Shown piece after piece: positions 33,001 through 36,000 of a stretch of 64,000 bases of DNA. The stretch lies in assembly GCF_030384885.1 (NCBI RefSeq), contig NZ_CP128614.1, one strand, 5' to 3'. Source of the stretch: Escherichia coli (GTDB taxonomy: Bacteria > Pseudomonadota > Gammaproteobacteria > Enterobacterales > Enterobacteriaceae). Position 1 is the stretch's first letter. The number at the start of each line of letters is the position of its first letter. A program made the position numbers.

Positions 33001-36000
33001 GGTAGTCTGACGGTCAACTATAAAGCATAATATAATTAGTAATAACAAGGAACAGACATGAATGAAAACTCAGTAATCTTAATAAGTTTATTTTGGTTTT
33101 TTTTGGGATCGAGTGTTGTAGCTGGTTTTATGGATGCATCATTATATTGCTGGATTTTTGCAGCCATAAGCGCATTGTTTCTTCTTTCGGTGATACAAAC
33201 ACCAAAGGAGTTAACGGTATCTATTAGTCATATGACAAGCAAAACGCTGATCTCAAAGACAGATGATGGATACACATTTAGCATTTCACCTTACGGAGAC
33301 GGGTACCGCTTATCAGTCTCGCCTGAAAATCGTCACAATGGTACCCAAAGCTTTGACGGCTGGTTCCCACGTTTTTTTTCCGAACCACAGTATGCCAAAT
33401 CATCTTTAACTAAATTTCTCGGTGAGTCCTTAGTATGGGAAGAAGATTCAAGTAATGCTCTATGAGATTACTTATTATAAATTTTTCTATTAATCTCCAT
33501 GGAGTGATATATGAATTTGGCCTATTTTTTATTTTTGTCTATAACTGTTATGCTTACGAGCTTTATTATTAAATCACTTGTCGTATTGGTAAAGTTCAAA
33601 TTACTTCGTGATGAACGTCTCGAATATACCAGCAATAAAAATATTGATGAGATGTACGATTTAATGAATGCGAAGGAAGAAATCCTCATAAGGCATCATA
33701 AGCAGATGTTGGCATTGCATCTTTCACTATTAATATTCGTTCTATTTATTGCTTACATTTACTAAAAATAATTTTATTCAACATTTCAACAAAGGGTTTT
33801 CAATGGAAAGCTTCGAAACTGAACAAATGATTCAATATGCTTTCTACATAAATATCGTAATAACGACTGGTTTGGCATGGTTTTGCTTGCGGTCAGGATT
33901 GCATTACAATTTTTTCAGAAAAGCAGAGAGTGCCAGAACAAAAGGGCTGAGTAGTACCTCTACTGAACACGGTCCAGCAATAGTGAGACTAAAGAAGCTA
34001 CAAGCATTAGTAGATTTTATTAGTAACTGTGCTTTTCTAATCCTTTCAATTGGCACAGCTTATATTTTGTATGTTTGGAGCCACAGTTAACTCATACGAG
34101 GTAACTTCGGCAGGTAACAACTTCTAATGCAGGACTTTAATAACTCTAAGGGATTCTACATGAAAAAAGACGATCTAATTACGCGTTGTAAATTACTTAA
34201 AGGCGAACGCGATGAGTCTATCTTTACCATATTAATTGGGATAGTAGTAAAGCTGGGGCTGGTAGGCCTGGCATTCTATCTGTTGCTTGGTTCCACGATT
34301 GATTGGTCAAGCTGGAAAACTTATGCCGCCATGTTGATCTTGGGAGCATTTCTCTAAAATCTTGAACCTTTTTTCACTCATTACAAGCCATGACCTAGTG
34401 CGTAGATCATACGATCTTTAAACCTTATGTCATTGATTTATAAGTACATATAACAAAGATTATGTTAAATACTGTATGTATGTACAGCATCAACAGTTGC
34501 CCCCCTCATATTGAGGTAATTGCTACATTCATACCACTATTCTTCTTATAGTATCGACATCCTGAATTATTGCACCCTACTGCTTTGTCTTTAGCTGTTC
34601 CGAATTAAAATTCATTGCTCAATTTGGATCACATGACGATCAGCGTATTCCTTTGCTTTATCAAAGTTAAGTTTTTAAAACATAAGATATGTAATGACAA
34701 ATTCTCAATCTGATTTTCCTTTGAACGATCAAAATTTTCAGGCAGATTTGCTGAAAATCAAAAAGGTTTTCGCCGACCTTATAACGCAGGCATCAGATGG
34801 TAAGATACCCATAAGGTCTTCTCATGTACACGGCTTACACCATTTCGAGGAGCTCTACATCCGGGCAAGAGCAGGCATGTGTTCGGTCCTGGGATATCCG
34901 GTCATGGTTGTTTCAACTATCTCAGTTAAAGAGCCCGGCACAGGCATTTTTAGAGCGCTTCTTGCAGAATTGAAATGTATTGCAGATGAACAAAATTACA
35001 TTTTGAAAATTGAAAATGTACTGCCTCCCCTATTCCGCAAATACCTTATTCAAGAAGGTTTTGTTTTCCCAGGTGAACCTTGGATGTGTGGTTCCGGCTA
35101 TTGGTTTAAGAACCCACAAGTACTTCATGAAAATATTGAGTTATTATCTGTTTAAGTCGATCTAACAATTTCACTGGAGCTAACATGTCCCCGGAATTGG
35201 TATCAGACATTGCAAGAGTGGCGCATGAAAAGCTACTTTCAATTTTAACGGAGTGCGGCATAGAGAAGACGGCAGGCACTTGCCTTTTTGCAAGCTATCT
35301 TGTGTGTTATTTAGCAAAAACTAAAGGTCTAGATGCTGTTGTCCGTGGGGGTAACGGTGCAGATGATGGCGGTATATTTATAGAGTGTGGTGGCTTTGGC
35401 CATTATTGGTGTGAGTTGAATTTCGAAGAAGTGCAATATTATATTGACATCACTTCCGAACAGTTTGGGTTTCATCCATACATAGTGAAACTCGCCAACG
35501 ATATAACAGGATGGCCTCGATATATTCCTGGTGATCAGGAAACGGTCGATAGTTATTTAGAACAATTATTACGCGACGGCTATACAGAATAGGCTGCGTA
35601 TACCCTATCGCAGCCTTTCAGGCTCTTAACCCTTGTGACCTGTTAACGGAACCACTCAGGATGACGCTGCCGATCAACTTTGATAACCTGCGAATTAAAT
35701 TCAACGACATCCGCTGGAGTAAGCATTAATTCATCAGGATTTACAATAAATGGTCTTAAAACCACTTCGCCACCGTCTTCTTTTGCACCGTAGATATTAA
35801 TAAGAAAGTGCAGTCGTTGATTTCCTTCAGCATTGCGTTGCCATTCTCTAAAAGTCAAAGTTTGTTTAATATAGTTTGTTAAAAGAAATGCGAATTCAGA
35901 TTCTTCCGTTTGTGAGATACCGATTTTGTTAGACATTTTTTTTAGTATCTTTCCGAGCATGGACACACAGGCATCTAGACTTAACGATGTTGAAATTTTG

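Follow-up and report, generated by a model that had tools for sequence, protein, structure and literature searches.

A LexA-operator-quality palindrome upstream of a two-gene unit on an IncHI2 plasmid and its possible role in damage-induced expression

The DNA analyzed here is a stretch of 64,000 nucleotides from Escherichia coli (contig NZ_CP128614.1 of RefSeq assembly GCF_030384885.1; hereafter, the window), which is part of an IncHI2 conjugative plasmid and includes both backbone and resistance region. At 34470–34489 it carries a 20-bp palindrome of LexA-operator quality, TACTGTATGTATGTACAGCA, and downstream of this box lie two co-oriented plus-strand genes, gene 1 (34694–35155, 153 aa) and gene 2 (35185–35592, 135 aa), the second of which starts 29 bp after the first. 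The box is located inside a 336-bp intergenic region, co-oriented with the next genes, and 204 nt separate its end from the ATG of gene 1. The initial annotation had described an SOS-box-like sequence with its core at 34472–34487, about 205 bp upstream of two co-oriented genes of these lengths, and we recovered both the sequence and the genes at these positions. Small plus-strand open reading frames (ORFs) for membrane proteins run upstream of the box, the last of them ending at 34357, and the genes flanking the box are all annotated as "hypothetical protein". The neighborhood is AT-rich (38–39% GC) and lies between the pco/sil metal-resistance cluster and the Tn3/IS26 resistance region. The 3.3 kb surrounding the box are 100% identical to hundreds of plasmids of 150–350 kb from E. 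coli and Salmonella that are typed as IncHI2A/MOBH; the lineage with the box is that of the pSTM6-275/pHK0653-like IncHI2 plasmids of these two hosts, and the plasmid-borne umuDC is found further along in the complete reference plasmid.

The central part of the palindrome, CTGTATGTATGTACAG (34472–34487), consists of the SOS-box core CTGT-N8-ACAG with an AT-rich spacer, and 17 of the 20 positions of the complete site agree with the LexA consensus TACTG(TA)5CAGTA as stated in PMC9578287. We expressed site quality as a heterology score of the Berg–von Hippel/Lewis type, in which lower values are better; it was built from 30 E. coli operators, and its absolute values are approximate. On its better strand the box scores 4.4, which is within the functional range spanned by the training operators (0.3–9.9), and the only other position in the window with a score below 10 is 53148–53167 (4.8). 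Based on 1000 composition-preserving shuffles, a score of 4.8 or better is expected 0.003 times per 64 kb, and the same estimate for the AT-rich 4 kb around the box is 0.0012 sites. For the bare core, about one chance occurrence per 64 kb had been anticipated, in line with the 0.58 that we calculate; two are present, and two or more were obtained in 12 of 100 shuffles. In a scan of the whole 276-kb pSTM6-275, the box is the second-best site, with the umuDC operator (1.9) alone scoring better and the two intI1 boxes (7.8) scoring worse. As far as the site itself is concerned, the case is therefore stronger than the initial annotation had made it.

The second CTGT-N8-ACAG of the window, GACTGTATGTAAACACAGTA on the minus strand at 53148–53167, served as an in-window positive control for the scoring. 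It lies 18 bp upstream of the ORF for the ISCR2 (IS91-family) transposase (51637–53130, minus strand), which adjoins floR. For the LexA box in the ISCR2 rcr promoter, LexA binding in electrophoretic mobility shift assays and SOS induction of lacZ fusions were reported in 2026 (PMC13393415). With control scores of 1.9 for plasmid umuD, 4.8 for ISCR2 Prcr, and 7.8 for intI1, the score of the 34470 box is equivalent to those of validated operators.

The exact 20-mer occurs four times in ~100,000 species genomes. Two of these occurrences (L016:3337–3356 and L017:3476–3495), from Pseudohongiella and Alteromonas, precede an imuA gene, one by 11 bp and the other by 35 bp; both genes score above the NCBIfam equivalog cut-off for ImuA. 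The imuA cassette belongs to the classical SOS units, and in both examples TATAAT is found immediately to the left of the identical 20-mer, a presumptive SOS box. We also considered that the palindrome at 34470 could be a product of chance, its core being a C-(TGTA)3-CAG tetranucleotide repeat that LexA does not occupy in vivo, e.g., owing to H-NS-type coating of this region of 38–39% GC. The repeat-like spacer and the lack of conservation of the box at related loci fit this explanation, and because shuffles do not model slippage repeats, the figure of 0.003 is optimistic. However, the flanking TAC...GCA also fit the consensus and contribute to the 17 matches out of 20, the score equals those of validated operators, and an identical 20-mer is used at imuA promoters; we therefore regard chance as an improbable origin. 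Taken together, motif quality, rarity, a score like that of validated operators, and the 20-mers at imuA promoters make it likely that LexA binds the 34470 box. In the literature, we found no prior account of the 34470 site, of the protein accessions of gene 1 and gene 2, or of LexA-controlled IncHI2 genes, and the text of one RNA-seq study of an IncHI2 plasmid under ciprofloxacin contains no gene-level plasmid data. The 20-mer is also present in seven viral contigs, in several of which it lies just upstream of a conserved small gene. We note that in Pseudomonas prophage-like contigs (L019–L026) the small gene after the 20-mer encodes MAKQKGSP...RWVTIHRLDTDGD....

Gene 1 encodes a protein of a narrow family with a GNAT-like fold (acyl-CoA N-acyltransferase superfamily), and AtaT and TacT are among its structural neighbors. 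No sequence match was obtained for it in Pfam, NCBIfam, or the PDB; acetyl-CoA motif A (Q/R-x-x-G-x-G/A) is absent, the segment "EPGTGIF" resembling it by eye only, and no Shine-Dalgarno sequence is visible upstream of the gene. Gene 2, with GGAG 7–10 nt before its ATG, belongs to an unannotated family with a transglutaminase/papain-like fold, which comprises 188 representatives of ~140 aa at 50% clustering and in which all source-named members are called "hypothetical protein". All of 76 family sequences that were compared share Cys33 and His73, and at least 90% of them retain Asp88. The structure predicted by AlphaFold for gene 2 is confident, with a predicted local distance difference test (pLDDT) score of 95.6, and its best Foldseek neighbors all belong to the Cys-His-Asp superfamily (arylamine N-acetyltransferases, SseI, the PMT C3 deamidase domain, and transglutaminases), with weak scores (E = 6e-3; template modeling (TM) score ~0.4). 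Conserved residues and predicted fold together suggest a transglutaminase/papain-like protein of the Cys-His-Asp type. The gene 2 protein has no sequence match in Pfam or the PDB; as a query it did not hit Pfam Transglut_core, and neither did its relatives except for one of the 76 family members (E = 0.0018). The family is found in conjugative-element accessory regions of Enterobacteriaceae, Pseudomonas, Burkholderia, Duganella, and Rhodanobacter, where distant relatives are among the small accessory genes of integrative and conjugative elements near RadC, DUF1525, and integrase genes; none was found in phages. For both proteins, searches of Pfam, NCBIfam, PHROGs, PADLOC, and the PDB returned nothing significant, and neither matched a known anti-phage defence system in PADLOC.

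How might the box act on these genes? A consensus scan found no plus-strand σ70 match of 9/12 or better near the box. In our own scan, the sole plus-strand candidate with 8/12 matches in 34360–34720 is TTTATA-18-TATGTT (34437–34466), with a predicted start at ~34473, i.e., inside the box, a geometry that is compatible with repression. The reading that we tentatively prefer is that of a real LexA operator gating this weak promoter into gene 1 and gene 2, an arrangement that would be of recent origin, brought about by recombination in one IncHI2 lineage. Specifically, in an undamaged enterobacterial host LexA would most likely occupy the operator, and the bound repressor would cover the predicted start of the weak σ70-like promoter. 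Because the box covers this predicted start, LexA cleavage in the SOS response would de-repress a transcript with a leader of ~220 nt, which would extend into the gene for the GNAT-like acyltransferase and then that for the Cys-His-Asp transglutaminase-fold protein, and would end at a hairpin after gene 2. Damage-induced expression of gene 1 and gene 2 is plausible on this basis. The hairpin, GGCTGCG-(10 nt)-CGCAGCC followed by TTTC (35592–35619; no strand assigned), was read from the sequence between gene 2 and the convergent 175-aa minus-strand gene and is the probable end of the two-gene unit; the terminator scan passed over it because its loop exceeds 8 nt.

Because the operator is palindromic, its orientation is uninformative, and the box could instead control the minus-strand promoter-like sequence TGTACA-16-CATAAT (34459–34486; start ~34452), transcription from which would run antisense into the 3' end of the preceding gene for a 65/76-aa membrane protein and yield an SOS-induced antisense RNA. 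With 9/12 matches this sequence surpasses the 8/12 of the plus-strand candidate, and the box extends over its −35 and spacer. Yet promoter-like matches are no more common in the region than in shuffles (4 found vs 5.2 expected), and the minus strand has no conserved ORF, Rfam family, or stable structure. Moreover, the best σ70-like match of the region, ATGACA-16-TATGAT (10/12; 34433–34406, minus strand), points antisense toward the 3' end of the same gene for a two-helix membrane protein (34127/34160–34357), is located beyond the box, and also occurs where there is no box. We consider control of an antisense RNA to be quite unlikely.

If transcription starts at the box, the leader would largely coincide with a lineage-specific plus-strand segment (34471–34660) that is bounded by two homology breakpoints. 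Its putative fold has z = −0.16 and that of the antisense stretch z = −0.29, neither of which indicates significant RNA structure. An RNA element in the leader was considered and rejected, given that an Rfam search of 30000–37000 with permissive thresholds returned one chance-level snoRNA match only. Similarly, a small SOS toxin encoded in the leader is unsupported: the ORFs there are 24–32 aa long, with weak starts and without a hydrophobic run of transmembrane length.

The left boundary of this segment coincides with the box. In local BLAST comparisons, homology with two unrelated contexts (L005 and L010) stops precisely where the box begins, at 34470. The end of the left-hand module, ...GATTATGTTAAAT (ending GTTAAAT), is followed by three different sequences: the box and leader here, a GNAT/DUF1778 toxin–antitoxin module after breakpoint 2870 in L005 (an IncF Enterobacter plasmid), and a 318-aa gene after breakpoint 1511 in L010 (a Sequence Read Archive (SRA) contig). 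Homology with other gene 1 loci begins only at 34660 (L011) or 34672 (L008). The 190-bp segment opened by the box is present only in ~650 IncHI2 plasmids of at least 99% identity to one another; the box and the two genes lie on the same side of the 34470 junction and travel together in these plasmids. A single plasmid match of 91.6% to the segment stems from an indel-rich assembly of the same plasmid type. Searches for a donor of the segment found no relatives in plasmids beyond the near-identical copies and none in phages, and the segment has no similarity to proteins or DNA flanking the two genes in other contexts. No repeat or element end was found that explains the shared breakpoint at 34470; a mobile-element end, in particular, was rejected because the window contains no second copy of the junction sequence, whether inverted or direct. 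The arrangement of box and genes thus looks like a recent recombination product of this lineage rather than an ancestral property of the genes.

The same junction is relevant to a further explanation, namely that the box is an orphan or relic operator, which binds or once bound LexA but controls nothing useful now. It would be what is left, on the promoter-proximal side, of an SOS-regulated unit that lost its −35 and −10 through recombination at 34470, and expression of the two genes would then depend on read-through or on signals directly preceding gene 1. That homology with two independent contexts stops at the first base of the box, and that three sequences follow GTTAAAT, fits such a loss, as does the position of TATAAT in the imuA examples, which is immediately left of the 20-mer and hence the position of the junction here. 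The box is absent from all diverged loci, and conservation of the 22–35 bp before gene 1 extends to other contexts. In addition, insertion sequence (IS) elements cluster in the short region around the box (L006:1170–1190 and 2495–2515; L029:742/1801; L027; L028), and in some plasmids an IS splits the box or parts it from the genes (L006, L029). In individual plasmids, ISL3 is inserted within the box spacer with an 8-bp target duplication, ATGTATGT, IS903 just past the box at 34499–34504, IS903B in the 65-aa gene at 34272–34280, and IS30 in gene 2. Nevertheless, the quality of the site is very unlikely to have arisen by chance, and the box is still intergenic, in the right orientation, and beside a possible promoter; also, the lack of a donor context for the 190-bp segment leaves the relic explanation without direct support. 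Overall, we find a relic doubtful, if clearly less so than chance or antisense control.

Several observations weigh against a LexA-gated two-gene unit, and they leave the part of the initial annotation that concerned control of the genes unsupported by comparison, with no box in diverged loci, a lineage-specific 190-bp segment, a weak promoter, and no fixed gene pair. First, in six diverged loci with gene 1 and/or gene 2 (L003, L004, L008–L011), for which 0.6–4 kb of upstream sequence was covered, there is no LexA-like site with a score better than 11, and the loci of distantly related gene 2 copies on islands of Pseudomonas and Burkholderia (L013–L015) have none better than 14. The six loci represent IncHI1 plasmids, the other IncHI2 lineage, and four SRA/metagenome loci. 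IncHI1 plasmids have a diverged pair, in which gene 1 shares just the C-terminal ~60 residues and gene 2 is 56% identical, and which has TATAAT and a good ribosome-binding site directly upstream; the other IncHI2 lineage (mostly Enterobacter) has kept gene 2 alone, at 94.6% nucleotide identity and behind a different gene set; and the four SRA/metagenome loci have gene 1 at 50–90% identity. In one of these (L008), a 158-aa upstream gene was considered as a gene 2 paralogue, for which BLASTP gave no support. Second, the pairing of the two genes is not obligatory: L003, L013, and L014 have gene 2 but no gene 1, and the gene following the gene 1 homologue in L010 is unrelated to gene 2. Third, because the plasmids that carry the box are at least 99% identical, its conservation carries no information on selection. 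Fourth, the plus-strand promoter is weak, an 8/12 match could arise by chance in AT-rich DNA, and its hexamers are part of the left-hand module, next to which other loci have unrelated DNA. Fifth, the gap between box and ATG is 204 nt, while the control operators are within ~40 nt of their genes. Sixth, the terminator scan found no terminator between the upstream plus-strand genes and the two-gene unit, so that read-through is possible. Finally, the 22–35 bp that lead into gene 1 (TTTTTAAAACATAAGATATGTAATG) stay conserved even between loci that differ further upstream (34660–34696; L008:624–648; L011:604–640), which suggests that they contain proximal expression signals. In this stretch, a start–stop ATG-TAA overlaps the gene 1 ATG, and because a −10-like TAAGAT ends 5 nt before that ATG, the gene 1 mRNA could be leaderless.

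Comparison with known systems places the proposed LexA-gated unit among plasmid functions under host SOS control. The 34470 box and the plasmid umuDC operator are the two best-scoring sites on the plasmid; both belong to the same plasmid family and are 20-bp palindromic motifs for the host LexA. However, the umuD box precedes a classical SOS gene, with ~20 bp to the start codon, whereas the 34470 box is 204 nt from genes of unassigned function and has no strong promoter. The intI1, qnrB, and colicin promoters are reportedly LexA-regulated, and these too are plasmid accessory genes brought under host SOS control via a single acquired operator, as proposed for 34470. Their operators overlap gene-proximal promoters, with two overlapping boxes in the case of the colicins, while at 34470 a single box lies far upstream; also, the two-gene unit includes no bacteriocin, lysis, or resistance gene. 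The type I toxin loci tisB/istR and dinQ/agrB produce SOS-induced transcripts with long leaders, and there, as proposed for 34470, the LexA box is at the promoter and the coding sequence >100 nt downstream. The tisB and dinQ leaders, though, are structured and encode or regulate small hydrophobic toxins, in contrast to the 34470 leader, which has neither significant structure nor a convincing small hydrophobic ORF. The GNAT/DUF1778 toxins TacT and AtaT have a GNAT-like fold in common with gene 1, but are accompanied by a DUF1778 antitoxin. No gene for a DUF1778 or ribbon-helix-helix (RHH) protein is located upstream of gene 1, the partner of which encodes an enzyme-like protein of the Cys-His-Asp type, and either gene can be found without the other; gene 1 and its surroundings therefore do not correspond to a type II GNAT–DUF1778 toxin–antitoxin system. 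Finally, the ISCR2 Prcr2 box (53148–53167) is likewise a CTGT-N8-ACAG on a mobile element with a similar score (4.8 vs 4.4), and it documents LexA control of mobile-element accessory genes on this very DNA (PMC13393415); it differs in that it overlaps a defined −10 (TAGACT), is 18 bp from the ATG, and has been validated experimentally.

LexA control of accessory genes of mobile elements is well known (umuDC, intI1, qnrB, colicins, ISCR), and the 34470 box would be one more candidate. In E. coli and Salmonella, this IncHI2 lineage is a major vehicle of multidrug resistance, and antibiotics that induce the SOS response already switch on IncHI2 umuDC, integron integrase, and ISCR transposase genes. 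If the proposed control of gene 1 and gene 2 is real, a unit of two unassigned enzymes would join the plasmid functions that are responsive to DNA damage caused by antibiotics, and two unannotated protein families would gain a handle. A more far-reaching possibility, which we consider a long shot, is that the globally spread IncHI2 lineage carries a damage-triggered module of two enzymes, the GNAT-like acyltransferase and the Cys-His-Asp transglutaminase-fold protein with its family typical of conjugative elements, which, once the SOS response is under way, modify a target in the host or in an invader, e.g., with a toxin/abortive or anti-defence function; this would be a new kind of cargo in the plasmid-borne SOS regulon. 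Should the box be a relic, it would exemplify how recombination in plasmid accessory regions scatters sites for host regulators.

Aside from the sites discussed above, there is a possible further LexA site on the IncHI2 backbone, CACTGGTTTTAATTACAGGT (score 9.0), at L032:10085–10104, i.e., 60085–60104 of pSTM6-275; it precedes a tyrosine recombinase gene by 17 bp and is divergent from the plasmid hha gene. A weaker LexA-like site, with a score of 10.6, is found 11 bp upstream of repHI2 (L035:31004).

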